This document shows, piece by piece, positions 16,433-63,855 of a DNA stretch of 64,000 nucleotides; the stretch's first letter is position 1, and the number at the start of each line of letters is the position of its first letter. Location: IMG/VR virus record IMGVR_UViG_2609460125_000009; one strand, written 5' to 3'. Made by a program: the position numbers and the translations under genes. Under the pieces are notes generated by a model. That model did not search any database. It was given only the letters and a program-made list of their open reading frames with translations, and was not told where the DNA came from. The stretch is from a virus. Taxonomy: Duplodnaviria; Heunggongvirae; Uroviricota; Caudoviricetes.

Positions 16433-16489
16433 GCCTGCTTCTGTATATATAAATAATAAGTAACTTATTAAATATATACGGAAGCAGGT
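16433..16489. repeat. large palindromic element, copy 1 (GCCTGCTTCTGTATATAT-loop-ATATATACGGAAGCAGG)
   Basis: 18-bp arms with one wobble position flank an AT-rich palindromic loop; followed by TCTTTT. The same arms recur at 63797-63855. Confidence 0.6.
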
Positions 16490-16595
16490 CTTTTAAAAGA
16501 CACCACCAGAACAACTCCCTTCCGTTTCCACTTCCAAAAACTGCCACCAGTCGCTATCATCCGCTCATTGTGATAAGTAAGTAACTACCTACCAG

Positions 16596-17345
16596 GTGAG
16601 CCACATGAGCCAAATCTTTTTCGATACCATCGACAACGACCAGTACGACTTCATGACAGAGTGGAATACCGCTGTTATGGACAAGTGGGTCGCTGAAAAC
16701 ATTGGTTTGTCGCGCTGTAAAGACGAGGCTGAACTCTTCGAGACGAAGTGGTTTGATTACCGCGACATGCATCCTCTCATGGCCACCTGTCTTTTTACGG
16801 AGGCATACAAACGTCAGTACTCAAATATCATGCTGACGCACGGTCGCGAACACTTTGAAACAGCTCCGTTCACCACCGGGTTAAAACGCCTGCCTTATCA
16901 GGAGTTGTCGACTGCCAATAAAACGTCGCTATGGAAAGCACGCCAGTTTGCGGATCGCTATTGCTGCTCATACGACTACTTTATCTCCACCGTTCTTTCC
17001 GCAGCTGCACGACGGCTGTGGGACAAGCTGCCGCGCCCACAGCATTTGTGGCAGCCAGAGCTGATTGAGATATTCGAAGAGAAATTAGCCAGACGCGCAA
17101 CAACCCGTCTGGATGACTCTCTCGTTAGCTTTAAGCATATGGGAGACATGCAGTTCAACCCGATTCAGGAAAGCTATTTTGAGTGGATTCTGGAGCGTTT
17201 ACGCACCATCCCCCGCAGCAAGCGCATACGCGCAATTTTCTCCGCTATCTGGCTAATGGAAATCGTTCCAGAGCGCCTTATTTCCGCCCACTTTCCAGAA
17301 GAACTGGAAGAAGCACGGCGGTTTATTGATCCCCTATCTAATTAA
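16596..17345 (+). CDS. hypothetical protein
   Basis: 249-aa ORF in the replication-gene operon; no motif recognised. Confidence 0.5.
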   Translation: MSHMSQIFFDTIDNDQYDFMTEWNTAVMDKWVAENIGLSRCKDEAELFETKWFDYRDMHPLMATCLFTEAYKRQYSNIMLTHGREHFETAPFTTGLKRLPYQELSTANKTSLWKARQFADRYCCSYDYFISTVLSAAARRLWDKLPRPQHLWQPELIEIFEEKLARRATTRLDDSLVSFKHMGDMQFNPIQESYFEWILERLRTIPRSKRIRAIFSAIWLMEIVPERLISAHFPEELEEARRFIDPLSN

Positions 17346-17388
17346 CTAATACTAGAAAACAATTTGTTTAAAAAACAAAGGAAAGCAC

Positions 17389-18729
17389 ATGACCGAACTT
17401 TGCCATACAGGACGCGGGCTGTCCGAAGAGTTTGATGAAGATTTTCAGAACAGATTGACGGCCTATTTTTGTCGTGATCACGAGTTTCTTACTCGTGCTG
17501 GAGATCTGGTTGTACCTAGCCAATTTGCCAATGCGGCCAATGCCATATTGGTTAATATGGTTTCGGGCTATTACCGTATGTACAAGAGCGCGCCCTCTTC
17601 ATCTGCGATTCTGGATATGCTTAAGCGTGCGAAACGCGATAAGACTATCCGTGAGGAACTATTCGCCGATGTTGTTGCTGCGTTTAAGCGCATCCTTGCA
17701 GAAAAATTGTCTGATACCTCGTACATGGTTGACCAGGTATCAACCTTCGCAAAAAGCGTAGCGTTTGATGATGCTCTGATTAAGGCTGCTGAACTGAAAG
17801 AGAAGGGCGACTTTCAGGGGGCGATGGCAATCATGGCCAAGGTTCAGCAGATTGGATCGAACGAAGCGACCGGAATCTATGACTACTACACCTCCGCAAG
17901 TGAGCGATTGAAAGCGCGTGAATATGAGGCTTCAGAGGAGTATGTGCCAAACAGCATTACAACTGGACTCCCTCTGCTCGATAGGTTGCTGTACCAAAAA
18001 GGCTGGGCGAAGCGTGAAATGGTGCTCTTCATGGGGTTCGCTAAATCCGGTAAATCGACCGCAATGGGTGAGTTTTCCATAAACGCAACGCTTGCTGGCT
18101 ACAATGTTCTGTATCTCTCGCTGGAGGTTCACACCACCATTTTATCCGACCGTTTTGATGCAAGATTGTCGGAGACAGAAATGTCCAAGCTGGTGGAACG
18201 GCGCGATGAGGTTCATCGTAAGTTGGCAGAGTTGGGAGCCACGAAGGGGATTGGTAGTTTGTGGGTTGTTGAGCGTCCGTCAGGAAGTATGTCACCGGCA
18301 GATCTGGACCGTATGCTTAACAGCATGAAAGCCAATGGCATGGTGCCTGACATGGTTGTTGTCGACTACGCAGATTTGATGCGTGCCAGTTATGACCTTC
18401 GTGATGATCGCGCCAACATTCGTAGTATCTACACCGATTTACGTGCTCTTTATGACAAGCATAACGTTGCTGGGATCACGGCATCGCAGACAAACCGTGA
18501 AGGTGGCGCGTCAGAAGTTGCCACAATGATGCACGCTGCCGACAATATCGAAAAAGTACGTATTGCTGACCTGGTAATAACGATCAACAAAACCGAAGAA
18601 GAAGAAGCGAAAGGAGAGGCTCGTCTCTACTTTGCTGGTTCACGTAACCAGCAGGGAGGGATCAGCATTCGCGTTAAACAAAACCTCGAACAAATGCGCT
18701 TCATTGAGCGAATCTTAGACGTTACCTAA
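17389..18729 (+). CDS. DnaB-like replicative DNA helicase
   Basis: Conserved leader AAAGGAAAGCACATG; Walker A GFAKSGKST in a RecA-like C-terminal domain; LDRLL...GW motif typical of DnaB-family helicases. Confidence 0.8.
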   Translation: MTELCHTGRGLSEEFDEDFQNRLTAYFCRDHEFLTRAGDLVVPSQFANAANAILVNMVSGYYRMYKSAPSSSAILDMLKRAKRDKTIREELFADVVAAFKRILAEKLSDTSYMVDQVSTFAKSVAFDDALIKAAELKEKGDFQGAMAIMAKVQQIGSNEATGIYDYYTSASERLKAREYEASEEYVPNSITTGLPLLDRLLYQKGWAKREMVLFMGFAKSGKSTAMGEFSINATLAGYNVLYLSLEVHTTILSDRFDARLSETEMSKLVERRDEVHRKLAELGATKGIGSLWVVERPSGSMSPADLDRMLNSMKANGMVPDMVVVDYADLMRASYDLRDDRANIRSIYTDLRALYDKHNVAGITASQTNREGGASEVATMMHAADNIEKVRIADLVITINKTEEEEAKGEARLYFAGSRNQQGGISIRVKQNLEQMRFIERILDVT

Positions 18730-18810
18730 AAAATAAGCGTGGAGAACACCTCCACGCTTGATTCATTGGTGAAACAACTTTTCTTTTGCCAAACCACAAA
18801 AGAAAAACAC

Positions 18811-19992
18811 ATGAGCCTTTATGTTATATCAACATTTAGGTTGGTCACAATATTGCCTGTTAAAAGTGGAATTATCGTGAGCGAGCTGAAAGAGCTAATT
18901 ACCGAATTAGATTTTGAACAATGGTTGGATACTGAAGGTATCGTTTATCGACGTGGAGGCGTGAGTACTCGCGGTCGTGAAGTGAATATCAAGGAGTGTC
19001 CGGTATGTGGCAGCTCCAACTGGAAGGTATATTTCAATCTGACCAGTGGCGTCGGTAAATGCTTCGCTGGTGATCATCCCGAAGAGATTCAGTTCAATAA
19101 GCTGGTCTTCCTCAAGCACTACAGCGGCAAATCACGACGACAGTTCGAGGAATATGTGCAGAACGCCCTTCTTTCCCAGGGGTGGGCACCAAAGAAAGAA
19201 GAGATAGTGCTTGCAAGCACAGTCGAGTTAGAGGGACCACTTGCACTCCCTCGTCATTACGAACTTCCTATAGATGGCCGTCTTCCAGACTATCTGGTTG
19301 AACGAAACATATCGCCTGAAATGGCAAAGTATTTTGACCTACGATACTGCGTCGAAGGCAAGCACGCTTATGTAGATCCGTATACAGATCAGGTTAAAGG
19401 ACAGATATTCGATATGCGAATACTGATACCGGTTTACGATCTGGATGGGGTAATGAAGACATTTCAGGGGCGAGACATTACCGGTACAGCTGAACGTCGC
19501 TACCTCTTTCCTATGCAGCTTCCAGCTTCAGGTAAGTTTCTCTACAACGGCCATAATGCGGTCGGCAAACAGACTGTAGTTGTCTGTGAGGGGGCGTTCG
19601 ATGTTATGGGAGTTAAACGAGCTATTTTTGATGAAGAAACATTACGTGATTACGTGGAACCGATAGGAACGTTCGGGATGCATCTATCTGGTAACACCAC
19701 TCAGGATGCAGAAGATCAGTTGGGCGCGTTCCTGACGCTCAAGGCGCGTGGATTACGTAATGTGATCATGATGTGGGATAGTGAAAAGCAAGCTATACGC
19801 AACACTATGGCCGCAGCCAGGCGACTGACCAGTATTGGTCTTAATGTCAAAGTAGCATGTTTGGGCGAGGAAGGACTCGACCCAGGCGATGCAACGCCAG
19901 AACAAATTATCAAAGCCTATTATCGGGCAAAACCGTATACCAAACAGTTGGAGTTGCAAAGCAAGGTTTTGGGCATTAAGGCGCTATCGTAA
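18811..19992 (+). CDS. DNA primase (zinc ribbon plus TOPRIM)
   Basis: Start chosen at the ATG preceded by the conserved leader AAAGAAAAACACATG (the ORF is open from 18739); CPVCGSS...C..GDH zinc-binding region; TOPRIM-like VVVCEGAFDVMG and MMWDSE. Confidence 0.7.
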   Translation: MSLYVISTFRLVTILPVKSGIIVSELKELITELDFEQWLDTEGIVYRRGGVSTRGREVNIKECPVCGSSNWKVYFNLTSGVGKCFAGDHPEEIQFNKLVFLKHYSGKSRRQFEEYVQNALLSQGWAPKKEEIVLASTVELEGPLALPRHYELPIDGRLPDYLVERNISPEMAKYFDLRYCVEGKHAYVDPYTDQVKGQIFDMRILIPVYDLDGVMKTFQGRDITGTAERRYLFPMQLPASGKFLYNGHNAVGKQTVVVCEGAFDVMGVKRAIFDEETLRDYVEPIGTFGMHLSGNTTQDAEDQLGAFLTLKARGLRNVIMMWDSEKQAIRNTMAAARRLTSIGLNVKVACLGEEGLDPGDATPEQIIKAYYRAKPYTKQLELQSKVLGIKALS

Positions 19993-20067
19993 CAAGTGCC
20001 GCTAAAATAAGTAGATGATTACTTATCTTTCTGTAAGAATACTTTCATCTGTTAGCTAGGAGTTGGT

Positions 20068-30172: not shown

Positions 30173-30267
30173 ACAAAACAGCCTTAACGATAAGTAACCA
30201 CTTACGATAGATAATGATATATTTATATAAGAAGTTGAACGCTCATTAGAAAACAAAGGAAAAACGC

Positions 30268-31503
30268 ATGACTACTACTGCACTGCAAAATGAAAACAAT
30301 CCTTCTGATTACCTTGTTTGCAAGTGGTGCGGAAAATCATTTCACTATTTTAAGTCCCATGTTGCCAATGGTAATTGCGAGGGCATTCCTGAGTCAGTAA
30401 AAGATGCCGATCCTGACACCGTACTGAAAATGTACACAACACAGTTTCCAGATGAGCCAACGCTATCGAAAAAGGCACTTGATGCAATTCAAGCTAAACG
30501 TGCCGAGCAAAAAAGCGAAATGGCCAAATCATCTGGCGTGACCAGTAGCCCAGGCTACACAGGCACAGTTGAGTACAAGACAGATCTGGTCGCAGCTCAC
30601 GAACTGCTAAATGTAACGGTGAAAGAACTCGGAACAAAACGTGGGACGCCGCTCATGGTTAGCGTCAACGTCAATACGCCGTTTCCAGAGTTCGTTCCAG
30701 AAGTGAAGAAGGGATACGTATATGGCGACTTCGAACTGATCAAAGACATTTTCATGATGCTTGAACTTGGCATACCTGGCTATTTGTGGGGTCATGCAGG
30801 AACAGGCAAATCGTCATTGCCTACACAACTATGTGCTTTGCTCAATCGTCCGTTGATCCGTGCCCAACATACAGCATCAATGGAAGAGGCACATGTTACG
30901 GGGCAAATTCTGGCGCGTGATGGCTCTACGTATTTCGAGCCTGGCTTGCTTGCGCTCGCAATGAAGCATGGCTGGGTTTACCTCGCGGATGAATACGACT
31001 TTGCGTTTCCACAAATTCTTGGCGTGTATCAGCCAGTGCTGGAAGGTGAAGCGTTAGTCATCAAAGAGGCGACTCCAGAATGGCGTCGCATTACTCCGCA
31101 TGAACGGTTTGCTTTCATTGGCACTGGCAACACGAACGGATCTGGTGATGAAACCGGCTTGTACCAGGGTACAAACATCCAGAACGCCGCGAACTTTTCG
31201 CGTTTTGGCATCGTTTCGAATGTGAAATACATGAGCAAAGAGGCAGAGATCAACATGTTGATAAATGCCGGTATCGTGGATGAATACGCAGAAAAGATGG
31301 TTAAGTTTGCCGGTATCGTTCGCGATGGATACGAAGAACACCTTATCAGTCAGCCAATTGGCCCTCGTGAACTTTTGTTGTCGGCCAAGATTGGAATGAT
31401 GCGAGGCGACTTTGTGACAGGTATTGAGCGTTCTTTCATTAACAAACTCCCTTCAGCTTCTGCACAAGCGGCTCGTGAAGTTGTTCAAAAAATATTTGGT
31501 TGA
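30268..31503 (+). CDS. AAA+ ATPase of the MoxR/CobS type with N-terminal Cys-rich extension
   Basis: Conserved leader AAAGGAAAAACGCATG; Walker A GHAGTGKSS, Walker B LADEYD; N-terminal CKWCG...H...C cluster. Confidence 0.8.
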   Translation: MTTTALQNENNPSDYLVCKWCGKSFHYFKSHVANGNCEGIPESVKDADPDTVLKMYTTQFPDEPTLSKKALDAIQAKRAEQKSEMAKSSGVTSSPGYTGTVEYKTDLVAAHELLNVTVKELGTKRGTPLMVSVNVNTPFPEFVPEVKKGYVYGDFELIKDIFMMLELGIPGYLWGHAGTGKSSLPTQLCALLNRPLIRAQHTASMEEAHVTGQILARDGSTYFEPGLLALAMKHGWVYLADEYDFAFPQILGVYQPVLEGEALVIKEATPEWRRITPHERFAFIGTGNTNGSGDETGLYQGTNIQNAANFSRFGIVSNVKYMSKEAEINMLINAGIVDEYAEKMVKFAGIVRDGYEEHLISQPIGPRELLLSAKIGMMRGDFVTGIERSFINKLPSASAQAAREVVQKIFG

Positions 31504-45093: not shown

Positions 45094-45573
45094 CACTGCG
45101 GTGAGTAGCCAGCTCACCGCATTCGTATCAGCTCATTATCCACTGTGGTCTGCAGTCCTCTCTTCCTACATATCTGCTAACCACTGTAGCGAGTAGACAG
45201 CCTTTCATTCGCATCAAACAACCACTATGGTGAGTATTGGAGTGAGATGTACAGCGGGTATCCACTATGGTGAGTAAGCCTTTGCTGTTTTCAGTGGATA
45301 TCCACTCGCCACAGTGGATACGCTCAAAGATGAGGGCGACAACAACCACTATAGACAGTAAATTTTCCAAGATACCCAGTGACCACTAACCTCGCAGCCC
45401 TTGTTTCATCAGTGTTAGTGATCACTAACATTTGATTCAGTATTTGCATTCTACTGCCTACAGTGGTTATCAACAGATAACGATACTCACTATAGTGGAT
45501 AGCGAATTACAGATATAAGTAAGGCTCACTACAGTGGATAGTGAGCCTTACTACTAACTACAGTGGTTGGGCT
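45094..45573. repeat. iteron-like repeat cluster (about 12 copies of CCACTrTGG / CTAyAGTGG cores in both orientations)
   Basis: Examples: ccactgtggtctg 45140, aaccactatggtgagta 45221 and 45261, cactatagtggatagcg 45488, ctacagtggata 45528; lies at the 3' side of the initiator gene. Confidence 0.6.
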
Positions 45574-46627
45574 ATTTGCGAGTCTTTGCCTTGCGCAACT
45601 CTTCGAGAAGCGCCAGTTCTTCTTTACTCAACATGACCATTTTGCCTTCTTTTTCGTCAGGCACAACGTCGATAATGTCATCTTGATTCTCATCTGGGAG
45701 GCTATATTCCGTCTCATCATTATCGATTTTTGTTGATATTTGTGCCTGGCGTAACTTTGGCCGCCTATAGTGGATGACGAAGTAGACCGAGTTTCCGCGC
45801 TTAACTTCCGTGTAATCGAGATATCCTATCTCTCGCAGCTGTTCCATAGCCTTTCTTACCGTCGCATTCTGAGTAATAGTGCGACTTGTCAGATTAAGTC
45901 TGGCGCGTAAACGGGCTAGTGATATTGGTGCCGGATCAGGCGGCAAACTTTCAATAAAAGTATAAAGCGCCTGAGCGGATTCTTTTCTTGAGAGTTCGTT
46001 TATAGCCCGGAGTTGCAGAAGAACCTTTTTGTCGAACTGGTAGAGTTCGAAAATCTTGGGATCTGCTTTCAGTTCGACCGTATCGTGCTTGACACTATAT
46101 TTTGCCGTTTGCACAAGATGCGTTACGTAAAACTCATCAGAGCCTTTGCTACGGAACGAGATGGTATTTGTGGCAATACGGCTTAGCGAACTGTCCAGGC
46201 GTTTGCGTAACTTCGCTGATGACCTGGCGGTCGGAATGCCACACAGCCTTACAAACTCAACGAACGGCAACGTGACAGTATCGCCAACGACCTTGTGTTT
46301 GGCAAACGCGTGGATTATTCCCACCCACGTTTTAAAGTCGTTATCCATATCAAGCCGAAGGCCAGAGATCCTTATGTCTTCGTACCCTTCGGCTTTTGCC
46401 AGAGACAGCTGTTTGAGTTCAGCAGAGGCATCCATAGAGACCATTTGCCCCTTTCTTCCTCTGGATGTCGATTTCAGCGTCGGAACGAAGAGGCCCAGAC
46501 GCATCAAAGCAACAGGCTGAACAGTGTTATTAGTGTTAGGAACCAACGTAACAACTTCGCCTGTCTTTTTATCTGTTTCTGAAAATGCTTCAACGATCGC
46601 TATGTTTTTATTGCCGTTTTCGCTCAT
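45572..46627 (-). CDS. replication initiator protein (RepA/Rep_3-like, iteron-binding)
   Basis: 351-aa minus-strand ORF flanked on both sides by 21-bp-spaced direct repeats; charged C-terminus; assignment rests mainly on context and overall resemblance to plasmid RepA-type initiators. Confidence 0.55.
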
Positions 46628-48269: not shown

Positions 48270-49355
48270 ATGACTTTGCCATACGGCGTCATTTCTGACT
48301 GCCACTACCACAAATGGGATGCGTTCTCCACGACGAACGCTGAGGGGCTTAACTCCAGACTTGAAATACAGTTGGAAGCAACGAAAGAAGCAGCCATCGC
48401 CATGAAGAAGGCCGGTTGTACGTACATGTTGGTTGCCGGTGATACATTTCACGTCCGAGGAACTGTGTCCCCTTCTGTTTTGCATTACGTAACTGAAACG
48501 TACAAGTGGATTATCAACGAGCTTGATCTGACAGTAGTAATGCTGGCCGGTAATCACGATCTTGAAACCAACGATTCAGTATATAGCGCCAACGCAGCAG
48601 CATCGCTGAGTTCTATCGGCGTGGTAATCGTATGTGGCAAGTGCCCACACTCAATAAAAATTGGTGATGTGACTGTCCACCTGATTAGCTGGCGTAACAA
48701 TCATGCGGAGCTTATCAGCGATCTGAAAGCATTACGTAAGAGCGTAGAAGGTGACAATCATGACGTTGTTATCCATACATCCATTAACAAAGCCATTCCA
48801 ACAATGCCTGACGTCGGTATCGATGCGCAGGAGTTAAAGGATATCGGCTTTCGTCTCGTGCTTAGTGGGCATTACCACAACCACAAAGAGGTCATTCCTG
48901 GAGTTATCAGTGTCGGTGCACTGACTCATCAAAATTGGGGAGATGTTGGATCTCTGGCTGGCTACATGATCGTAAACCCGGACGGCAGTTTCAGTCACTA
49001 CGAAACCAGTGCGCCTAAATTCATTAACCTGGAAGATGATGTTGCTGATGACCAAATTCGCGGCAACTACGTGCGTTTCCGCGCCGTAATTGAGAACGAT
49101 GAAGAAGGCATTAAGTACCAGAACATCCTCAAAACAATGGGTGCAAAAGGTGTCGTGTGCAACTTCATCCGTAAGTCATCAATGATGGAAGGGACAGCCA
49201 GCACAACTGAAACCAGCAAAATCGATAGCCTGGGAGAGTCGGTATCTGCTTATTGCAAGATTGTCCACGATACTGACGGCGGATTTGATCTGAGCAAATT
49301 GGATATTTTGTGTCAGGAAATCCTCACCGAAGCGGAGAGTTCGGAGGCTGTGTGA
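48270..49355 (+). CDS. sbcD: SbcD/Mre11-like nuclease subunit (calcineurin-like phosphoesterase)
   Basis: Conserved leader AAAGGAAAAACACATG; phosphoesterase motifs DCHYH, GDTFH, GNHD, GHYH. Confidence 0.85.
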   Translation: MTLPYGVISDCHYHKWDAFSTTNAEGLNSRLEIQLEATKEAAIAMKKAGCTYMLVAGDTFHVRGTVSPSVLHYVTETYKWIINELDLTVVMLAGNHDLETNDSVYSANAAASLSSIGVVIVCGKCPHSIKIGDVTVHLISWRNNHAELISDLKALRKSVEGDNHDVVIHTSINKAIPTMPDVGIDAQELKDIGFRLVLSGHYHNHKEVIPGVISVGALTHQNWGDVGSLAGYMIVNPDGSFSHYETSAPKFINLEDDVADDQIRGNYVRFRAVIENDEEGIKYQNILKTMGAKGVVCNFIRKSSMMEGTASTTETSKIDSLGESVSAYCKIVHDTDGGFDLSKLDILCQEILTEAESSEAV

Positions 49356-49584
49356 AGCAAAGTCGTTATGGGAGCTTTCGAGACTTTGCCATCACGATGA
49401 AAAGACTTGAACGAGGCCAGACGGTGATGTTTCACAAGCCCTACCCGCCACAAGGAAATCCCGTAGCGTTTTATCTTGGAAGGTTAACAAGAAAAGGCGT
49501 ATTGAGACGCAGATCCTTCCCGGCGCATACGGAGTTCAGATTGAAAGAAGGCCAAAAGCTAACACACGGTATCAGAGGTGTTAT

Positions 49585-51501
49585 ATGAAGTTTTTAAAGC
49601 TCCAGGTTGAGAATTTTATGGCTATCGCCAGCGCGGAGGTCGAGTTAGATCAGCGTGGTTTAGTGCTCATTCAGGGTGTTAATAGTGATGATAGTTCCGC
49701 ATCAAGTAATGGCTCTGGAAAGTCAACTCTAATGAATAGCCTGATGTGGTGTCTTTATGGCGAAACAGCTCATGGTGTGAAGGGTGACGATGTGTTGTCT
49801 ACCGACCATGAAAAGAACTGTCGTGTTGCAGTAACCATCGAGGATGAAGGCAAGAGATACGCAATCATTCGTCACCGTAAACACAAAGAGTTCAAAAATC
49901 GTCTTATCGTTCGTGGTGAAGATGGCGATATGACGAAAGGCAAAGATGCGCTGACGCAGGAGTTCGTCGAGCGTCTGATCGGTGCATCTAAAGAGGTTTT
50001 CATGGCTTCCATCTATGCGAGCCAAGAAGCTATGCCAGATTTACCTGGAATGTCCGACAAAAACCTCAAAACCATCGTAGAAGAAGCCGCTGGCGTTGAC
50101 AGACTGACACGCGCCTACGCTATTGCTCGTGAGCGAGCTAATGCAGCTGCCGCACGTATGGATGTGGTTAAAACCAAATTGGAGTCGACAATCTCGACCA
50201 TTGAGGCAACACAGTCAGAAATTGAGTCAGCGAAAGCCTCCTCTGAATCATGGGAGCAAGAGCGTTCTAAACGTTATGACGATGCCCTGGCTGGGCTGGC
50301 CAGTGCCGAAGTTGAGTTAACGGAAGTTGAACTTGAGATCCGCACTCTTCCCGAACAGATACGTGATACCGAGAAGGCAATCGAAAGTGAGCGCAAAAAG
50401 TTAGCCTCAAAAGAAGAACATGACGCCAAGTTGCTCAAAGTTCGTGGTGCGATAACTGATATTCGGGCAAGCATCAAAGCTACAGAAAATAGTCAGGCTG
50501 ATGCAATGAACCGCGCGCGTAATTTTAAGACCAAAGCAGAAGAGGTTGGTACTAAAGTGGGATCACCATGCCCTACTTGTGGCAAAGCCTACTGCGAAGA
50601 AGATCTATCAACGGTGAAGGAGAATTTCATTGAACAAGCACGTCAGGAAATTGGTCAGGCGAAGACACTTGCAGAGGCAATGGCTAAACACAAAACGAAT
50701 CTTGAGAAAGCGTTAAGCATTGAGTCTGCCCTTGTTAAAACGACACCTGATGTAACGGCTATCATTGCCCGGATTGAAGAGCTTACGAAACAACTCTCAT
50801 CTTTGCGTCATCGTGAGAAGGAGGTTGTTGCTATTGAGTCTCTTGTGACTCGTGCTCGTACTGAGGTCGATCGTATATCAAAAGAGATTAATCCGTTTAT
50901 TGCTCTTATCGCCAGACACGAAGATAACCTGGTATCCAGTAAGTCTACCTTCAAGTCCTTAAAAGATGAGTTGAAGGCTATTCAGGAACAAACGTTGCTA
51001 TTGGAAAAAGCTCGTCAGGTCTACTCTCCTGCCGGGGTGCGTTCTCATATTTTGACGTCTGTTACGCCTTTCCTGAATACACGCACTGCCGAGTATCTCA
51101 ATACGTTGTCTGACGGGAATATTACTGCTGAGTGGTCGACGATGGATGTCACTAAAAAAGGTGAGTATCGCGACAAATTCAACATTAGTGTGCAGAAGAA
51201 AGGTTCAAGTAAGTCGTTCCAAACCCTCTCTGGTGGTGAGAAGCGGAAGGTTCGCATTGCGTGTTCTTTGGCATTGCAGGATCTGGTTAGTAACCGGGCG
51301 AGTAAAAACATCGATTTGTTTATCGGCGACGAAATTGACGATGCACTCGATACAGCCGGTCTTGAACGCCTCATGGGTATTCTGGAGTCCAAAGCTCGCG
51401 AGCGAGGTACTGTGCTGATTATCTCCCATAAAGAGATGAAGTCGTGGTTCCGGGAAACTATTACGCTGGAAGTTAAAGAGGGGCGCAGCTATGTCGTTTA
51501 A
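49585..51501 (+). CDS. sbcC: SbcC/Rad50-like ATPase
   Basis: Walker A NGSGKST, long coiled coil with central zinc hook CPTCG, ABC signature LSGGEKRK, Walker B LFIGDEID. Confidence 0.85.
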   Translation: MKFLKLQVENFMAIASAEVELDQRGLVLIQGVNSDDSSASSNGSGKSTLMNSLMWCLYGETAHGVKGDDVLSTDHEKNCRVAVTIEDEGKRYAIIRHRKHKEFKNRLIVRGEDGDMTKGKDALTQEFVERLIGASKEVFMASIYASQEAMPDLPGMSDKNLKTIVEEAAGVDRLTRAYAIARERANAAAARMDVVKTKLESTISTIEATQSEIESAKASSESWEQERSKRYDDALAGLASAEVELTEVELEIRTLPEQIRDTEKAIESERKKLASKEEHDAKLLKVRGAITDIRASIKATENSQADAMNRARNFKTKAEEVGTKVGSPCPTCGKAYCEEDLSTVKENFIEQARQEIGQAKTLAEAMAKHKTNLEKALSIESALVKTTPDVTAIIARIEELTKQLSSLRHREKEVVAIESLVTRARTEVDRISKEINPFIALIARHEDNLVSSKSTFKSLKDELKAIQEQTLLLEKARQVYSPAGVRSHILTSVTPFLNTRTAEYLNTLSDGNITAEWSTMDVTKKGEYRDKFNISVQKKGSSKSFQTLSGGEKRKVRIACSLALQDLVSNRASKNIDLFIGDEIDDALDTAGLERLMGILESKARERGTVLIISHKEMKSWFRETITLEVKEGRSYVV

Positions 51502-52234: not shown

Positions 52235-52243
52235 GGAGACTAT

Positions 52244-52813: not shown

Positions 52814-52886
52814 TCTCATTGATAGGTAAGTGCTTATCTATTAACATGGGCCACTAAATATAGTGGCCCTCTTTATTTGGTGATAC

Positions 52887-55202: not shown

Positions 55203-55207
55203 CATAT

Positions 55208-55235
55208 GGTGGGGTATATCCCCACCTTATCTTTG
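55208..55235 (+). terminator. rho-independent terminator
   Basis: GGTGGGG-TATAT-CCCCACC followed by TTATCTTT after the nrdA stop. Confidence 0.65.
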
Positions 55236-55302
55236 ATTTGTAAGCCTTGTTTAAACACATAAGATAACAACTTGTTTAAACACATCAAAAAAGGAAAAAC
55301 AC

Positions 55303-56445: not shown

Positions 56446-56522
56446 ACCGATACAAAGCATTATGTGGCCTGGCAACGCTGGGCCACAATGGATCACAAGA
56501 ATTAAGAAGGAACAAAACTAGC

Positions 56523-57392: not shown

Positions 57393-57447
57393 TTGTAGGT
57401 AGTTATCTATCTGTGTATATTTAACATGCGTAATAAAACTCTGGAAT

Positions 57448-57476
57448 GACTATTCGTTTTGGTGGCCTATGGCCGC
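57448..57476 (+). terminator. rho-independent terminator
   Basis: TGGTGGCC-TAT-GGCCGCCA followed by TTTTTTT. Confidence 0.7.
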
Positions 57477-57562
57477 CATTTTTTTATCTGTCTGGTCTTG
57501 TTCTCTCAATGAATGTAAACTCACACGATGAATAAGTAATTACTTATCTTTGTGAGGTTTTT

Positions 57563-58666
57563 GTGTCACTCCTTTTGAATCGAGAGCATACGAACGGTCA
57601 GGTAACAAACGCATCGTATGCAAAAGTTATTGAGACGGTGCTTAAAAGCGGCGTGCAGGCTGATGATCGCACAGGCACTGGTACTTTAAGCACCTGCTAC
57701 GTTCCCTCTTACTACATGCTTACTGGTGGGACTGTGCCGCTTATTTCTGGAAAGGCGGTAAATCTTAAGCCACTGCTTGTCGAACTTGAGTGGTATCTGA
57801 AAGGCACGGGCAACATCCAATTTCTCAAGGATAACGGCGTTAAGATTTGGGATGCATGGGCCGATGAGAATGGCGATTTGGGGCCGGTTTACGGTAAGCA
57901 GTGGCGTCGATGGGAAGATACCCGCATCGTGAGCCATAGTGAATATCTGAGCAAGATCGATACTTTCCGTGAACGCGGGTACAAAGTCGAGGGATACCTG
58001 GGTATCAGTGAAGATCGCGTAGTGCTGTCCCGTGAAATCGATCAGCTACAGCGTATTGTCGATACACTGCGCACGAACCCCACCGATCGTCGCATCATGC
58101 TTAACGCATGGAACGTAGGCGAGCTTGAGGATATGAAACTGCCACCTTGCCACTTTGTCTTCTCTTTGTGGAGTCGTGAGCTTGATTTTGAAACCCGTTT
58201 AACGATGGCAACTGACATTGGTCTTCAACACAGTCGCCTCGGTTATGAGTCTATCTACACCAAGATGCTATACGATCTGGAGATGGACGGCAGTGTTACT
58301 GAAACTGAACTGGATGAACTTGGAATCCCCAAACGCATCCTCAACTCCTGCCTCGTACAGCGTAGCGTAGACACTTTTGTTGGTATGCCATTCAATATTG
58401 CTGGCTATGGCATTCTCACTCATTTTCTCGCGAAGATTACGGGTCACATGGCCGGTGCATTTGTACATTTTGGCTTTGACGTGCATTTGTACAACAACCA
58501 CATGGAAGGTGTGTGTGAGCTAATGAAACGACAGGCTCCAGAGCATTCAGATCCGGTCGTTATTTTCCCTCATGAATGGTCTGAGCTGGATGATTTCAAA
58601 TGGGACGATATTCTGATTCTTGGCTATGACCCTCTACCGTGGATCAAGGTTCCAGTGGCGGTGTGA
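57563..58666 (+). CDS. thyA: thymidylate synthase (ThyA-type) with two insertions
   Basis: GTG start after GAGG; motifs DRTGTGT, DLGPVYGKQWR, RRIMLNAWNVGEL, LPPCH, QRSVD...GMPFNIAGY, HLYNNH; about 100 aa longer than the E. coli enzyme because of two inserted segments. Confidence 0.85.
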   Translation: MSLLLNREHTNGQVTNASYAKVIETVLKSGVQADDRTGTGTLSTCYVPSYYMLTGGTVPLISGKAVNLKPLLVELEWYLKGTGNIQFLKDNGVKIWDAWADENGDLGPVYGKQWRRWEDTRIVSHSEYLSKIDTFRERGYKVEGYLGISEDRVVLSREIDQLQRIVDTLRTNPTDRRIMLNAWNVGELEDMKLPPCHFVFSLWSRELDFETRLTMATDIGLQHSRLGYESIYTKMLYDLEMDGSVTETELDELGIPKRILNSCLVQRSVDTFVGMPFNIAGYGILTHFLAKITGHMAGAFVHFGFDVHLYNNHMEGVCELMKRQAPEHSDPVVIFPHEWSELDDFKWDDILILGYDPLPWIKVPVAV

Positions 58667-58667
58667 T

Positions 58668-59081
58668 ATGGCAATAGGTATGTATGTCTTATGCGAAATT
58701 GAAGGTGTGCTGGCAAATACCAGCCATCGTAAATCTGTATCTGACGCGGATGCAGGCCAGCTCATTGCCGGTGATGAACTCATTTTCCCCACCAGCCGTA
58801 TGTTGCGTGGTTTTGCTCGCTCAGGGGCTGAAGTGGTGCTTATCAGTAGCCGCTCTGAAACTCTTGAAGCGCCCACTAAACGATGGTTGAAAGATTTTGG
58901 TGTTGATTACGACTGGCTTCATCTCGTACCGAATGGCGTCAGTTATGAGAAGCATATTAAGCGCACATTAGCGGAGCATAAAGGCGATCTGCTTATCGCT
59001 GCGCTGGTGCACGATCCTCGACTCCGTGCCGCTTTAGCTGACTCTCATCATAGACCGGTCATCTATGAGGTGAGCAAATGA
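58668..59081 (+). CDS. hypothetical protein (possibly a HAD-like small hydrolase)
   Basis: ATG directly after the thyA stop; weak resemblance to HAD motifs; stop overlaps the DHFR start. Confidence 0.35.
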   Translation: MAIGMYVLCEIEGVLANTSHRKSVSDADAGQLIAGDELIFPTSRMLRGFARSGAEVVLISSRSETLEAPTKRWLKDFGVDYDWLHLVPNGVSYEKHIKRTLAEHKGDLLIAALVHDPRLRAALADSHHRPVIYEVSK

Positions 59082-59554
59082 AGATGATAGCTGCTGTTGG
59101 CCGTAACTATGAGATCGGCATAGCGAACGAACTGCCCTGGCGTTGTTCTACCGATCTGAAGCTATTTAAGAGACTCACCAAAAACGCCACTGTCGTTATG
59201 GGGCGTAAAACGATGGAAAGTCTCAAACGCCCTCTTCCAGAGCGTCATAACCTCGTTTTGACGCGCTCTCATGGCTTTGTACCAAATGGATTCTACCCTG
59301 CTGGTGTGGATGATGTGTTGCGATTACCAGAGCCTGTGTGGGTGATTGGCGGGGAACAAATTTACTCGCTATTCATGCCGCATGTTGAAGAGATTTGGCT
59401 CTCCCACATCGGCGTTGATGTGCCAAACGCCGATGCATTCTTCCCGGCAAGCATGATGCGTAATTTAGGCTTTGTGCCTGTTGAAACAGTTTTTACCCAA
59501 CGAGCCAGCGAGGAAGAGCTTGGCTTTTCGCAGATCGTATACAGAAGGTCGTAA
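59078..59554 (+). CDS. folA: dihydrofolate reductase
   Basis: Motifs IAAVGRNYEIGIANELPW, VVMGRKTMESL and VIGGEQIY. Confidence 0.85.
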   Translation: MKMIAAVGRNYEIGIANELPWRCSTDLKLFKRLTKNATVVMGRKTMESLKRPLPERHNLVLTRSHGFVPNGFYPAGVDDVLRLPEPVWVIGGEQIYSLFMPHVEEIWLSHIGVDVPNADAFFPASMMRNLGFVPVETVFTQRASEEELGFSQIVYRRS

Positions 59555-60198
59555 TGGATTACCGGATTGGGATCACTGGTGCTCAGGGCAGTGGGAAAAC
59601 AACCCTGGCAAAATATATCGACAAACATTACGGAATCCCTTACGTGGATGCTGGTGTCGGAAGTTTGATGAGCCGACTCGGTGTTCGAGTAGGTGAGTCT
59701 ATGCCTCTATATGAGCGGCTTCAGATTCAAATGGAAATAGCAAAGCATATAGAGCTACTTACGCGTGGTGTTGAAGGCTTTGTTATCGATCGCACACCTG
59801 CTGATGTTATGGCCTACACGTTGGATTTGGTCGGCCATACCAATGAAGATCGATGTATTGAGTTAGCCCTCGATATCGAAAAGTTTTGCCACAAAACTGC
59901 TATTTCAAACTTTAACGCCATTGCTGGCTTACGCCCGGGAGTCGCTCTCTCAGAGCGAGATTACTTGCGATCACAACGAGCATCATTAGACCGTCTGTAT
60001 GTCGCTCGTATTGATGCGTTGATGTGCGGGGAACTGACAAAAATTCACCTGCATCCGCAAAGGGGGGATCTGCAAACCTTCGTCGTTTCCAACCGATATC
60101 GCACGGTTGAAGCAAGAGCCAGATCAGTGATGAGAATGCTAGATAACGCTGTAGAAAAGATAGAAAACCGGTTCTGTGGCCGAGTGACCGTTCATTAG
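59554..60198 (+). CDS. P-loop nucleotide kinase (dNMP kinase-like)
   Basis: Walker A GAQGSGKTT at the N-terminus; 214 aa; embedded in the nucleotide-metabolism operon. Confidence 0.55.
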   Translation: MDYRIGITGAQGSGKTTLAKYIDKHYGIPYVDAGVGSLMSRLGVRVGESMPLYERLQIQMEIAKHIELLTRGVEGFVIDRTPADVMAYTLDLVGHTNEDRCIELALDIEKFCHKTAISNFNAIAGLRPGVALSERDYLRSQRASLDRLYVARIDALMCGELTKIHLHPQRGDLQTFVVSNRYRTVEARARSVMRMLDNAVEKIENRFCGRVTVH

Positions 60199-60259
60199 AA
60201 ATTGTTCGCCTCTTCGACATTGCGACAATAAAACTCTCAAAATGGGTTAAGGATAAAAA

Positions 60260-60679
60260 ATGTTTAGTGAAATGTTGCTTGAAGATGAACTGGATCGGAA
60301 AACAACAGAGGCTTTGATTCGTGTAGCGGACGAACATTCCCGGTCTCTTATGAGCGATCGAGAGGCTCGTCTGGCTATTCGTGCCATATTCGAAACTGCG
60401 CAGGGGCTTGTTGGCGCACAAGTAGGTGAAGCCATTAACATCGCCATGTCTCAGTTCAGTGAAGGCAGTAAAAAGCCTCTGTTTCCTATGCATTTGATGC
60501 TGGCTGGTGGCACGGTGCTTTACGTCTCTGTTTGTCTGGATAGCAACCAAATCAACATTCTCAACACGGCGTCAGGTAAGTGGAAAGATCCGGTTGTCTG
60601 TGAAACCAGTGAAGAAACTTTGAAAAAAGCGGCTCAATTTGTACGTAGCGCACTACTTAAGGGCGCTAAGAAGTTGTAA
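60260..60679 (+). CDS. hypothetical protein
   Basis: 139-aa ORF with RBS AAGGA. Confidence 0.45.
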   Translation: MFSEMLLEDELDRKTTEALIRVADEHSRSLMSDREARLAIRAIFETAQGLVGAQVGEAINIAMSQFSEGSKKPLFPMHLMLAGGTVLYVSVCLDSNQINILNTASGKWKDPVVCETSEETLKKAAQFVRSALLKGAKKL

Positions 60680-60688
60680 GGAGTAGTA

Positions 60689-61483
60689 ATGGGACAACCG
60701 GTAGACATAACAGGTAAACGTTTTGGAAAGTTGGTTGCACTTAAATATTCCGGTATTTCAAACAAACAAGGGCGACTTTGGGATTGCATCTGCGATTGCG
60801 GCAACACCTGCCTGGTTAGTTACGGGAAGCTAAATCACGGGGCGACAATATCGTGTGGCTGTGTCTACAACGCACATCGCCGTAGCGTAAAGCCTCATGG
60901 TATGAGTAAAACGCCAATTTATCGTATATGGCTGGGTATGCGGGAACGATGTGAAAAACCAATCCATCACGCCTATAAGTGGTATGGCGGCCGAGGTATC
61001 AAAGTCTGCGAGCGGTGGCAAATATTTGAAAACTTTTATGCTGACATGGGAGAGCGACCAGAGGGGATGTCTCTTGATCGCAAAGATGTGAATGGTGACT
61101 ACGAACCTGAAAATTGCAGATGGGCGACTTTTGAAGAACAGGCCAATAACACGCGTTCAAACTTAATTTTGGAGCATAAGGGGGAAAAGCTGACTCTCTC
61201 ACAATGGGCTAAAAGAGCCGGGATTCAGACATCAACTCTTCACTATCGAATCAAGAAAGGGTGGCCATTAGATCGCGCGCTTAACGCCAGCGTCGACACG
61301 TATGCCAACCGAGATAGTAAGCGTCTGATCGAGTGTCGCGGCAGAACTCAGCGAATTACCGAATGGGCTAGAGAGGTTGGCTTGACTGCGACCATTATCT
61401 CGCAGCGAATTTTGAGGGGGTGGGATGTTGAAGCTGCCATCTTCACACCGTCCAAACGACCAGTAAAAGGAGATAAAAAGTGA
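60689..61483 (+). CDS. putative HNH-family endonuclease-like DNA-binding protein
   Basis: RBS AGGAG; Cys cluster CICDCGN...CGC and the segment YRIWLGMRERC...YGGRGIKVCERW...LDRKDVNGDYEPENCRWAT typical of phage free-standing HNH-type endonucleases. Confidence 0.45.
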   Translation: MGQPVDITGKRFGKLVALKYSGISNKQGRLWDCICDCGNTCLVSYGKLNHGATISCGCVYNAHRRSVKPHGMSKTPIYRIWLGMRERCEKPIHHAYKWYGGRGIKVCERWQIFENFYADMGERPEGMSLDRKDVNGDYEPENCRWATFEEQANNTRSNLILEHKGEKLTLSQWAKRAGIQTSTLHYRIKKGWPLDRALNASVDTYANRDSKRLIECRGRTQRITEWAREVGLTATIISQRILRGWDVEAAIFTPSKRPVKGDKK

Positions 61484-62028
61484 TTGCTACAGGGGTGGAC
61501 ATCGAATCAACAGGTCTTGATTTCCTCTCAGGCCATAAAATCATTGAAATCGCAATGGTGAAGTACGAAATTGAGACACAGACAATGGTTGATAGTTTTG
61601 TAATGCGGTTCAACCCGCGTCGCAGTATCGATCCGAAAGCGCAAGCGGTACACGGCATCAGTCTTGAAGATTTAGCCGCCGAGCCGTTACTAGCCGATCA
61701 CGCTTCATCTGTCGCTTCGTATCTCTCTTCTTCCGATATTTGGATAGCCCACAACGGCGAAGCGTTCGATATTCCGTTTATTAGGCATGAGCTGAAAAGT
61801 TACGGTTTTTCGCTTCCAGACATCCCATTGATTGACACTCTATTTTCCCTGTGGGCCACAGAAGACGGTAAACGTCCTCGCCTTGAAGAATTGGCCTTCT
61901 CTCTTGGCTTTATATACGATCATGCCAAAGCACATAGTGCCTTATATGACACAAACTTAATGATGCAATGCTTCTTTAAGGCACGTAATAAATACGGATT
62001 TTTTAAATTACCCTCTGAAATTGTGTAA
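61480..62028 (+). CDS. DnaQ-like 3'-5' exonuclease (DEDDh proofreading subunit)
   Basis: GTG start after AAGGAG; Exo I DIESTGL, Exo II HNGEAFDIPF, Exo III HSALYDT. Confidence 0.85.
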   Translation: MIATGVDIESTGLDFLSGHKIIEIAMVKYEIETQTMVDSFVMRFNPRRSIDPKAQAVHGISLEDLAAEPLLADHASSVASYLSSSDIWIAHNGEAFDIPFIRHELKSYGFSLPDIPLIDTLFSLWATEDGKRPRLEELAFSLGFIYDHAKAHSALYDTNLMMQCFFKARNKYGFFKLPSEIV

Positions 62029-62033
62029 AACAA

Positions 62034-62072
62034 AAGCCTGCTTTAAAGAGAGTTTGAAGCAGGCTTTCTTTT
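62034..62072 (+). terminator. rho-independent terminator
   Basis: AAGCCTGCTT-loop-AAGCAGGCTT followed by TCTTTT after the exonuclease stop. Confidence 0.65.
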
Positions 62073-62188
62073 AAAGAACAGTCGCCTTTCAATCATTTCC
62101 TGCCTGTATTTAATACTTTTCCGCCTGATAGGTTTAGTCAAAATGTAGCCATCGAAACGCAAATGTAACCAAGCAGAAGGAGACTTAC

Positions 62189-62998
62189 ATGAGTTCGGTT
62201 GAAAATGTAATGACAAATGATGATCTGGACGAGCTGACAGCCATGTTGCAATCACTTGATGAACCAGTAAAAAAAGCCGCACAGGTTGAAAATACTGATG
62301 ATATTGACGATCTGCTGCTCGGCCTCGATGCTGGCGTAGCCATGAGTTCTGATGATGTTGCCGAAGAACTGTTCAATGAAGAAAAAGCAGGTGATTTCAG
62401 CTCTGCTTTAAATGAGTTGGAGTTAGCGCATGAGCCTATAAACGTAATTAACGCTGAAAGTGTTGAAGCTGCCGAAAACGAGCCAGAACAATTGGGATTT
62501 ATTGAGGTTGAAGAGTATGTTGAGGTTAATGACGAATTAAAAGTTCAACAGTCAAATGATAGCAACACAAATAAAAAAGCGCGTACTGCAAGAGGTCCTC
62601 GTTTTACTTTAAGTGATAAAGATGATTCGTTTTTCAATAAAGCAGGCTTAGAAACAGATATTTTCTTAGACGCTTACGAAAACGCGCCTGTCAAAGCAAA
62701 GGATAAGATATTAAACCTTCTTAATTGGTTTAGCGGAGGTCCAGATATTAGTGTTTACACGGTAATTTCCATGAGACACCTTCTCACAGAAAAGAAGGCT
62801 ACAAGTAATAGTATTAAGATTGCTTTAATGAGCAATCCAGAAAAACCGTATCCGCTTAACACTGCGTCAACTCAGGCTGGGCAAATGATGGCTGTATTTC
62901 CAGCGACAGGAATTGCCGTTAGAGACGGTGGAAATCTAACATTGAACGAAGAATCACCGATCGTTAAGAAGTTTGTAGCGGAGTACACTATTGGATGA
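62189..62998 (+). CDS. hypothetical highly acidic protein
   Basis: RBS AGGAG; N-terminal 120 aa very rich in Asp/Glu. Confidence 0.5.
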   Translation: MSSVENVMTNDDLDELTAMLQSLDEPVKKAAQVENTDDIDDLLLGLDAGVAMSSDDVAEELFNEEKAGDFSSALNELELAHEPINVINAESVEAAENEPEQLGFIEVEEYVEVNDELKVQQSNDSNTNKKARTARGPRFTLSDKDDSFFNKAGLETDIFLDAYENAPVKAKDKILNLLNWFSGGPDISVYTVISMRHLLTEKKATSNSIKIALMSNPEKPYPLNTASTQAGQMMAVFPATGIAVRDGGNLTLNEESPIVKKFVAEYTIG

Positions 62999-63073
62999 CG
63001 TCCCCCTACTGAAAATAAAGCCCATAGAGAGCTTTATAGTGCTGGGTAAGCCAATCACATACCCAGCACCACA

Positions 63074-63122
63074 AAAACGCGCCAGAGAGCTTCTCGTTTG
63101 CATTTCTGGCGCGTTTTATTTG
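63074..63122 (+). terminator. rho-independent terminator
   Basis: AACGCGCCAGA-loop-TCTGGCGCGTT followed by TTATTT. Confidence 0.7.
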
Positions 63123-63181
63123 ATTGCCAGACATAAAATCAAATGCAAAAATAGGTAATCACTTACCTATCGAGAAAGAAG

Positions 63182-63775
63182 ATGATTGCAGCCGAAAAAA
63201 TCAAACAGCGAAAGCGCGACAACTCTCTTCGTGACCTCTGGAGAACACCTGACTGGCTGTTTTCTGCCATTCAACGTTATCTTGGAGTGACATTTGATGT
63301 TGACGTTGCCTGCAACAAGGACAATGCAAAGCTGCCTAATTTCATAGGCGTTGAGCGTGATGCTTTGAAATCTGAATGGGGACAGCCAGGTACAATTGCC
63401 TTCCTCAATCCACCCTACTCCAAAATCTCCCCCTGGATTGATGCGGCTATACGTGAGCAGGCTCGCGGAGTTACAACAGTGATGCTAATTCCTCAATCCC
63501 TCGATACAAAGTGGTATGAGCGTGCAACAGAGTGTGCGAATGAGACGATTATTCTGTCTGGTGGCCGCGTAGCGTTTGTCGAGCCTGACGTCAATTTGGG
63601 TCAGGTAGAAGTAAACATCAACCCCGGTGGCAGTATGCTCGTTGTTTTTCGAGGATTTTGTCAGGACGCTGGGCACTCTATAAGCAAGATCCCTTTGGAC
63701 GTCATGAAAAGTCTGGGAGGGTATGATCCTGCGAATGTGATCAGGAAAAAAAGACCATCAAAGAAGGCTGCTTAG
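63182..63775 (+). CDS. DNA N6-adenine methyltransferase (phage Dam-like family)
   Basis: Catalytic motif FLNPPYS (NPPY); 197 aa, consistent with small phage Dam-type methyltransferases. Confidence 0.8.
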   Translation: MIAAEKIKQRKRDNSLRDLWRTPDWLFSAIQRYLGVTFDVDVACNKDNAKLPNFIGVERDALKSEWGQPGTIAFLNPPYSKISPWIDAAIREQARGVTTVMLIPQSLDTKWYERATECANETIILSGGRVAFVEPDVNLGQVEVNINPGGSMLVVFRGFCQDAGHSISKIPLDVMKSLGGYDPANVIRKKRPSKKAA

Positions 63776-63796
63776 TTTGTTCTGGAGTCTGTAATT

Positions 63797-63855
63797 AGCC
63801 TGCTTCTGTATATATAAATAACTACATATTAATTATTAATATACGGAAGCAGGCT
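63797..63855. repeat. large palindromic element, copy 2 (same arms as 16433-16489)
   Basis: AGCCTGCTTCTGTATATAT-loop-ATACGGAAGCAGGCT followed by GTTTT; arms identical to copy 1, loop different. Confidence 0.6.

Follow-up and report, generated by a model that had tools for sequence, protein, structure and literature searches.

The DNA analysed here (the window) is a stretch of 64,000 nucleotides from the IMG/VR virus record IMGVR_UViG_2609460125_000009. It shares 99% identity with 'Escherichia phage CMS-2020a' (CP053388), 98% with PhiR41_1 and with Cyrano, and 81% with Salmonella phage SSU5. From these identities, we take the window to belong to an Escherichia coli SSU5-like phage-plasmid of about 108 kb that bears nearly all of its genes on the + strand. 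The elements in question are two large palindromes, s1 (16433-16489) and s2 (63797-63855), together with a third copy, s3, which lies outside the window. A sequence-only reading of the window had singled out the first two as intergenic elements with shared arms, and had suggested that they could be strong terminators, partition or packaging sites, or nuclease recognition sites. Both palindromes were confirmed at these coordinates.

Anatomy and gene context of s1 and s2

Each site carries a 55-base hairpin delimited by CCTG...CAGG (Table 1). When the 17-mer of the arm was searched with up to three mismatches, the window contained four matches, two arms at each of the two sites, against 0.07 expected, and 0 of 100 shuffles equalled that count. 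The + strand RNA of both sites is predicted to fold with a stability reached by 0 of 200 shuffles. The − strand folds are weaker (−23.3 kcal/mol for s1 and −27.0 kcal/mol for s2), because arm position 9 is a T.G wobble on the + strand and a C.A mismatch on the other, so that the complementarity of the arms is imperfect. In s1, the lower stem, CCTGCTTCTGTATATAT/ATATATACGGAAGCAGG, leads into an AT-rich upper stem and a 3-nt apical loop. The main stem is ~25 bp long, with arm starts separated by 39 bp, and its upper two thirds are nearly pure A/T, while the base of the stem is GC-rich (CCTGCTTC/GAAGCAGG) and provides the stable GC-based stem-loop of an intrinsic terminator. The hairpins are followed by TCTTTT at s1 and CTGTTTT at s2, on the + strand only, which agrees with the earlier observation of a short T-run after both; the − strand flank of s1 has no T-run.

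Other parts of the earlier description needed revision. The arms had been called identical over 18 bp, but s1 and s2 share 24 nt on the left (GCCTGCTTCTGTATATATAAATAA) and only 15 nt on the right (ATATACGGAAGCAGG); conservation of the arm sequence did hold, and the near-invariant arms described below show that the element is conserved in sequence and not in structure alone. The loops had been called different and are in fact homologous, with the whole s1 and s2 hairpins agreeing at 49 of 58 aligned positions.

All copies also carry a second inverted repeat, (G/T)TCTGG(G)...CCAGA(A/C)C, ~12-18 nt beyond the arms, and with these outer repeats included the predicted fold grows to ~110 nt and −45 kcal/mol. 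As a candidate genome-wide word, CCCAGAC shows no enrichment in the window, with 5 occurrences against 6.5 expected; it is local to the hairpin flanks. A search of both regions against Rfam 15 at a permissive threshold returned only generic microRNA-like hairpins, at 14-22 bits against gathering scores of 37-93. A simple terminator scan called neither s1 nor s2, because the stem has an internal loop.

Both palindromes are intergenic, as had been stated, in two different settings. In the window, s1 is flanked by divergent genes, with a − strand gene starting at 16322 and a + strand gene starting at 16596 or 16605, and so is not a classical end-of-gene site. The second copy, s2, lies between co-directional genes: a Dam methyltransferase gene whose stop codon is 22 nt upstream, and another + strand gene that begins 107 nt downstream. 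The right neighbours of s1 form a replication-module operon that encodes a 246-aa phrog_2500 protein, a DnaB-like helicase and a primase; sequence searches of Pfam, PHROGs, NCBIfam and PDB gave no function for the 246-aa protein. On the left, s1 lies ~930 bp from a gene pair consisting of parA and a gene for a 119-aa protein. The intervening GIY-YIG gene is free-standing (PF22945, phrog_5356), has its own 13-bp GC hairpin at its 3' end, and looks like a homing-endonuclease-type cassette. CP053388 and PhiR41_1 have this cassette; Cyrano and SSU5 lack it, and their nucleotide homology with the window begins exactly at the left edge of s1. Across relatives, many kinds of cargo are inserted just upstream of s1, among them the GIY-YIG nuclease, a DUF2971 protein, a P-loop NTPase and CYRAN_30, which lengthens the par operon of Cyrano. 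GC skew shows no inflection at s1 or s2.

A conserved C-rich leader connects s1 to the replication operon, and a sigma-70 promoter scan found nothing sigma-70-like in this leader or near s1. Both hairpins are followed, ahead of the next genes, by a CCAG(A/T)CGCT motif and, ~17 nt further on, by a −10-like GATAAG or TATGAA, without a sigma-70 −35 element. Judged by its sequence, this combination may be a promoter type specific to the SSU5-like family.

Table 1. Coordinates of the hairpins, their parts and other features (window positions unless another genome or contig is named)
Feature	Position	Strand	Remarks
Hairpin s1	16433..16489 (CCTG...CAGG core, 16434-16488)	+	GCCTGCTTCTGTATATATAAATAATAAGTAACTTATTAAATATATACGGAAGCAGGT; −30.2 kcal/mol, z −9.7; orthologues in all SSU5-like genomes examined
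Hairpin s2	63797..63855 (CCTG...CAGG core, 63799-63853)	+	AGCCTGCTTCTGTATATATAAATAACTACATATTAATTATTAATATACGGAAGCAGGCT; s1 arms, diverged centre; −29.4 kcal/mol, z −6.8
T-run of s1	16489..16494	+	TCTTTT; directly abuts the stem; kept in 13/14 distinct s1 variants
T-run of s2	63856..63862	+	GTTTTAT; T-run in most s2 variants
Left outer inverted repeat of s1	16406..16417		TTCTGGGCGTCT; pairs with 16498-16511
Right outer inverted repeat of s1	16498..16511		AGACACCACCAGAA
Left outer inverted repeat of s2	63780..63791		TTCTGGAGTCTG
Right outer inverted repeat of s2	63865..63879		CAGAGACTCCCAGAC (shorter form AGACTCCCAGAC)
C-rich conserved leader, s1 to replication operon	16495..16604	+	motif CCAGTCGCT...GATAAGT, also found after s2
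CCAG(A/T)CGCT with −10-like motif	16547-16578; 63915-63943		downstream of s1 and of s2
GIY-YIG nuclease gene cassette (context only)	15555..16322	−	inserted between par operon and s1
GC hairpin of the GIY-YIG gene	15508-15538		13 bp
Dam methyltransferase gene	63182-63775	+	upstream of s2
Ordinary terminator after exonuclease gene	62032-62072		AAAAGCCTGCTTTAAA...TTTGAAGCAGGCTTTCTTTT
Further inverted repeats	23749-23837; 24680-24764; 24995-25072		20-23 nt, spacers 38-45 nt
Plasmid replicon repA	45572-46627		in window
SbcD-like phosphoesterase	48270-49355
SbcC-like ATPase	49585-51501
PhiR41_1 copies	13435, 45582, 75115
SSU5 copies	33458, 78304, and spanning record ends
pHCM2 copies	32062, 62419, 87184
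s3-to-terS region	PhiR41_1 L004 45637-45753; SSU5 record 19-133		between s3 and the small terminase gene
Enlarged s1 region	L161 1-409		54% relative
Small gene with weak Hfq-family matches	L157 10787-11023; L162 10787-11041; L164 1015-1245		absent from window

Several other features of the window are of related kinds. The ordinary terminator after the exonuclease gene shares the stem base GCCTGCTT/AAGCAGGC with the large hairpins, and the window contains 7 occurrences of GCCTGCTT, with 2.2 expected. The three further inverted repeats crowd into 1.3 kb and are unrelated in sequence to the s1/s2 hairpin. The SbcD-like and SbcC-like proteins belong to an enzyme class that cleaves DNA hairpins, which is notable since the same genome maintains three 55-bp near-palindromes.

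Three copies at fixed slots

The sequence-only reading had allowed that only two copies might exist. This proved not to be so: the genome-wide count is three, at fixed slots, and all complete relatives that were examined have s3, which precedes the small terminase gene (terS) by ~115-120 nt. PhiR41_1, SSU5 and pHCM2 each have exactly three copies. A count of six copies in pHCM2-type plasmids was rejected, as it had scored three palindromic sites on both strands.

The distribution of the element is equally regular. An exact-pattern scan of IMG/VR returned 96 complete hairpins, and the flanks of all 96 map to the s1, s2 or s3 slots. The 61-nt core, used as a BLAST query, has matches in 798 PLSDB plasmids; the hosts concerned are Klebsiella, Escherichia, Enterobacter, Yersinia pestis (pMT1), Salmonella (pHCM2) and Citrobacter. 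Of 5,426 complete E. coli genomes, 260 contain it as well. In these, 1009 of the 1011 places were on plasmids, and the chromosomal match examined lay inside an SSU5-like fragment with ISEcp1 at its flanks. When one genome was scanned for each bacterial species, Kluyvera, Buttiauxella and Yersinia pestis were the only taxa credited with the element; 12 other matches, in unrelated taxa, were taken as chance. Because all viral instances fall in the three slots and the remainder follow the plasmids, we regard the element as a fixed three-slot feature of one phage-plasmid family rather than a dispersed repeat. The literature consulted on SSU5 termini, on PhageTerm, on palindromes of pHCM2/pMT1 and on transcriptomes of pHCM2 does not mention it.

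The surroundings of s3 contain features of their own. NCBIfam searches gave no function for the proteins that flank it. Between s3 and terS are two direct repeats, AAACAA(A/G)TTG(G/T)TTAGG, and, immediately ahead of the start codon, a GC hairpin and its T-run (GAGCGCAAGGATGCGCTC TGAGTGTTTT); this region could serve late-operon control or terminase binding. The linear records of SSU5 (NC_018843.1) and Cyrano (OV696614.1) open inside s3, and draft contigs of relatives start or stop at the s1 or s3 slots (the starts of L161, L164 and L165). Evidently, the repeated palindrome breaks assemblies.

Variation among copies was followed in 37 distinct variants, with the downstream flank used to set the orientation. 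In the arms, the 14 outer positions are nearly invariant, with the exception of position 9, which is T.G in 17 variants, C-G in 8, T-A in 6 and C.A in 6. In the canonical group, RNAalifold retained only the 13-bp lower stem, with 0 of 13 pairs changed on both sides and a covariation term of −0.04, a result that neither supports nor opposes the hairpin structure. Changes on a single side lean towards + strand wobbles (23 vs 8 with position 9, 6 vs 2 without it), in cases that are non-independent. The AT-rich centre varies freely, and TA-repeat slippage brings the total length to 52-57 nt. In some lineages, the core is flipped against unchanged flanks (in L086, it agrees with the window at 53 of 55 positions when inverted and at 46 of 57 when compared directly), a change that does no harm to a stem-loop. 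Lineage-specific variants are shared between the s1 and s3 centres, which are identical in the E. coli lineage and both carry ACTAAGT in SSU5; this points to gene conversion between copies as a likely process. We infer that gene conversion, together with selection against single stem changes, keeps the three copies identical.

Diverged elements were reached via the protein encoded downstream of s1 and via the small terminase. At 64% identity of the downstream protein (contig L159), the arms are the same and the loop is unrelated; the hairpin lies 6 nt past a stop codon and is followed by GCTTTT. At 59% (Raoultella) and at 54%, the s1-slot arms are CCTGCTCCCCAT/ATGGGAAGCAGG and CCTAGCTCTGTATA/TATACAGAGCTAGG, respectively, with both arms altered together and pairing kept in each case; exact IMG/VR searches for both of these arm variants gave no match. 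At 46-49% (Morganella, Xenorhabdus and one more contig), a short GGGAGCA...TGCTCCC hairpin occupies the s1 slot and precedes TTTCTTTC, TTTTTTT or TTTCTTTTT. In the Klebsiella michiganensis group, the s3 slot holds a remnant left arm and then AGAGC-ACG-GCTCT with eight T residues, and in Klebsiella s1 lies downstream of a + strand gene. Across these relatives, the slots always hold a hairpin, and usually a T-run too, even where the sequence has been replaced.

Two further observations come from these relatives. In the 54% relative, the s1 region is enlarged: the hairpin is truncated, another left arm follows ~190 nt further downstream, and CCCAG(A) motifs occur at least five times, in both orientations, of which three lie inside GTCAAAACCCAG-like repeats; given this cluster, the CCCAGA motif follows the hairpin across lineages. 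Morganella/Xenorhabdus-type relatives have a small gene with weak Hfq-family matches between the phrog_2500 and helicase genes (Table 1).

Expression across s1 and the case for a terminator

The consequences of s1 for transcription can be followed in Cyrano, to which the window is 98% identical on the right of s1. The Cyrano par operon (parA, CYRAN_29 and CYRAN_30, all on the + strand) ends at 31134. Its s1 spans 31159-31211, 24 nt past the CYRAN_30 stop codon, and is followed by TCTTTT; CYRAN_31, the phrog_2500 gene, starts at 31328, and s1 is the sole strong hairpin in the 193-nt gap. A published RNA-seq table reports gene-level expression in 10 samples of the host E. coli LF82 (PMC9928086, supplementary file 2). 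In the two lysogeny broth samples, mean values (fragments per kilobase per million mapped reads, FPKM, +5) were 50 for parA, 89 for CYRAN_29 and 55 for CYRAN_30, and 6.2 for CYRAN_31, with a floor of 5 (PMC9928086). Over the ten samples, the par operon ranged from 50 to 1400 and CYRAN_30 from 55 to 1370, against ~5-18 for CYRAN_31 (PMC9928086). On a log2 scale, expression fell from 5.7-10.4 upstream to 2.3-4.2 at CYRAN_31, a drop of 2.9-7.9 that was seen in all ten samples (PMC9928086). At s2 and s3, the flanking genes were near background on both sides in Cyrano lysogens (PMC9928086). CYRAN_81, downstream of s2, was strongly expressed (PMC9928086), so a promoter follows the s2 hairpin.

We conclude that the element is probably a family-specific, strong factor-independent (intrinsic) terminator that insulates gene modules. 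Among the roles suggested at the outset, strong termination is supported by the T-runs on the + strand, by the expression collapse in Cyrano and by the ordinary terminators that take the element's place in distant relatives, whereas the partition, packaging and nuclease proposals found little or no support. The location beyond a co-directional transcription unit is found for s2 after Dam and for s1 after CYRAN_30 in Cyrano, in L159 and in Klebsiella, and a U-run is found at s1, at s2 and in most of their orthologues but not at s3. We infer that the drop at s1 reflects termination rather than processing, and that s2 and s3 behave like s1.

Under this terminator model, all three copies would be read on the main coding strand. 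RNA polymerase arriving from upstream would transcribe the GC-clamped stem, 18 bp with an AT-rich extension, and the hairpin would form in the exit channel; at s1 and s2, the U-run would then free the transcript. The first copy would part the lysogen-expressed partition and cargo region from the helicase-primase replication operon, s2 would close the nucleotide-metabolism/Dam block, and s3 would precede the terminase and structural genes. Genes expressed in the lysogen would thereby be kept from reading into lytic modules, and the conserved leader just downstream presumably holds each module's own promoter. The accumulation of cargo upstream of s1 fits a terminator that shields the downstream genes.

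Several points weigh against termination as a full account. The drop in Cyrano was measured in a relative, concerns s1 only and is gene-level, and is compatible with termination, with cleavage and decay, or with a protein roadblock. In the window, s1 does not directly follow a co-directional gene, as the − strand cassette is inserted there. The stem is far longer and more AT-rich than termination needs, a simple terminator would have no use for the outer inverted repeat found at each of the three sites, and position 9 is a plain C.A mismatch in 6 of the 37 variants. The arms are identical in three old paralogues, and in relatives down to 64% downstream-protein identity, without compensatory change in the canonical group. 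Finally, s3 has no T-run in any lineage bearing the canonical hairpin, and in those E. coli/Salmonella-type relatives that were examined, ~70 nt past s3 and just before terS, there is another GC hairpin, which is followed by a T-run and may do the terminating there; termination is therefore not the whole story for s3.

Alternative explanations and known systems

A dual-purpose or regulated site is unlikely. On this view, a phage-plasmid protein would recognize the arms, and possibly also the outer CCAGAC repeats, in double-stranded DNA or in hairpin form; the reader might be a repressor acting as a roadblock or at an operator, or an anti-termination factor, with the boundaries shut in lysogeny and opened together on induction. 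Such a reader would suit arms that stay constant in three paralogues with unrelated flanks and down to 64% downstream-protein identity, a total length kept at 52-57 nt, an outer inverted repeat conserved at every site, and the lack of a T-run at s3. The paired arm changes of diverged lineages suit dimer half-sites as well as a stem, so that symmetric changes are expected whether the element is a terminator or is read by a protein, and the Cyrano drop suits a roadblock equally with termination. There is also a precedent, the yobI terminator, whose palindrome doubles as a LexA site (bioRxiv 10.64898/2026.08.19.745784). However, the binding protein is only hypothetical, the arm starts are far apart for a simple operator, coding-strand T-runs are conserved at s1 and s2, ordinary GC-rich terminators fill the slots in distant lineages, and gene conversion, to which the shared s1/s3 centre variants point, can account for the identity of the copies. 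In a form of this idea that we consider similarly doubtful, the three hairpins would be co-evolving, sequence-specific switches whose arms and CCAGAC repeats are read by a factor or by the SbcCD-like nuclease; the replication, accessory/early and structural boundaries would be shut in the plasmid state and, on induction, would be released together or the DNA would be cut. This would explain one sequence in three paralogues, the paired arm changes, the fixed spacing and a terminase-proximal copy without a U-run. We hold it improbable that the primary role is instead that of an RNase III processing site or an mRNA-stabilizing hairpin. Phage T7 intergenic RNase III sites split polycistronic RNA and leave a protective 3' hairpin, and the element here may resemble them in having several sequence-related intergenic copies, in lacking a T-run at s3, and in a ~25-bp stem that, taken with the outer repeats, is predicted to fold into lower and upper stems parted by an internal loop and reaches about the two-turn length of double-stranded RNA. 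However, T-runs are present at s1 and s2, and a >100-fold drop to the floor in the downstream gene exceeds usual differential decay. RNase III processing could nevertheless occur in addition to termination.

Roles at the DNA level appear less probable still. It is very unlikely that the element is a replication or recombination site, be it a lytic origin, a primosome-loading hairpin, or a cruciform cut by the genome's own SbcCD-like nuclease to start recombination-dependent replication. The AT-rich centre between GC clamps should unwind easily, the helicase-primase operon comes directly after s1, SbcCD-like proteins are encoded in the genome, and recombination and cargo insertion concentrate at the left flank of s1, next to a core that flips. 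Nevertheless, GC skew has no inflection at s1, there are three copies and no iterons, the repA replicon is elsewhere, short ordinary terminators occupy the slots in distant lineages, and flips and hotspots are expected side-effects of any palindrome. A pac/cos recognition site is hardly credible. The closeness of s3 to the small terminase gene and the opening of both linear records inside s3 would favour packaging, but the two other copies lie 30-47 kb from the terminase genes, where cuts would yield sub-genomic fragments, and a pac or cos site should be unique, whereas only one of the three copies is near terS. Breakage of draft assemblies at these palindromes is a simpler cause of the SSU5 record ends, and Cyrano was re-annotated and compared gene-for-gene with SSU5 (PMC9928086), so its opening point was probably copied and is not independent evidence. 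A literature search for virion DNA end data for these phages found none. Just as implausible is a miniature mobile palindrome (of the kind of miniature inverted-repeat transposable elements or repetitive extragenic palindromic, REP, sequences) or a plasmid centromere, even though the element is repeated, has outer motifs like terminal inverted repeats, and at s1 lies close to the par genes. Mobility is opposed by the confinement of all 96 viral instances to three orthologous slots and by the 798 plasmids that carry the element, with 1009 of 1011 E. coli places on plasmids and the examined chromosomal match in a transposed SSU5-like fragment; no target-site duplication was seen, nor a site occupied in one genome and cleanly empty in another. 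Against a centromere, the element is a single palindrome and not an array of short repeats as in known type Ib centromeres, and its distance to the par genes varies with cargo. We found no positive evidence for the partition site proposed earlier, with copies 30-47 kb apart and variable cargo between s1 and the par genes, and the idea of a recognition site for an encoded nuclease is countered by relatives that keep the hairpin and lack the GIY-YIG gene beside s1.

The element appears to be a well-conserved signal of an ordinary, known kind, most likely a terminator. SSU5-like phage-plasmids are common in clinical Enterobacteriaceae and carry resistance genes and other cargo. Three insulators that mark the borders of the replication, accessory and structural modules would provide a simple map of transcription units for the family, and would explain how cargo builds up upstream of s1 without lytic genes being switched on. 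As a repeat that breaks short-read assemblies, the palindrome probably also set the opening point of the SSU5 reference record. If the arms are read by a protein, the sites would offer a handle on the family's lysogeny-lysis switch.

Comparison with known systems places the element among several kinds of intergenic palindrome. REP sequences and bacterial interspersed mosaic elements, enterobacterial repetitive intergenic consensus sequences and Correia-type repeats are likewise imperfect palindromes of 50-150 nt in transcribed intergenic regions and can affect RNA 3' ends; they occur in tens to hundreds of copies at variable loci, whereas the element here occupies three fixed orthologous slots in one phage-plasmid family. 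The RNase III hairpins of T7 early genes are also several related, long, intergenic hairpins on the coding strand, with the lower stem, internal loop and upper stem that the element also shows when its outer repeats are counted; the hairpins here differ in carrying U-runs at two copies and in numbering three per 108-kb genome. The LexA-bound yobI terminator and the repressor 'stoperators' of mycobacteriophage L5 share with the element that they are sequence-conserved, transcription-stopping sites in short intergenic gaps, with several copies per genome. The L5 stoperators are short and asymmetric and present in tens of copies, and a protein reader of the element here is only putative. Finally, the element shares with enterobacterial and phage Rho-independent terminators a GC-based stem-loop with a U-run, placement at operon ends, a sharp fall in downstream RNA in Cyrano, and textbook terminators in the same slots of relatives; it departs from them in its ~25-bp stem that is mostly A/T above the base, its three paralogues with the same arms, an s3 without a U-run, and an outer inverted repeat.

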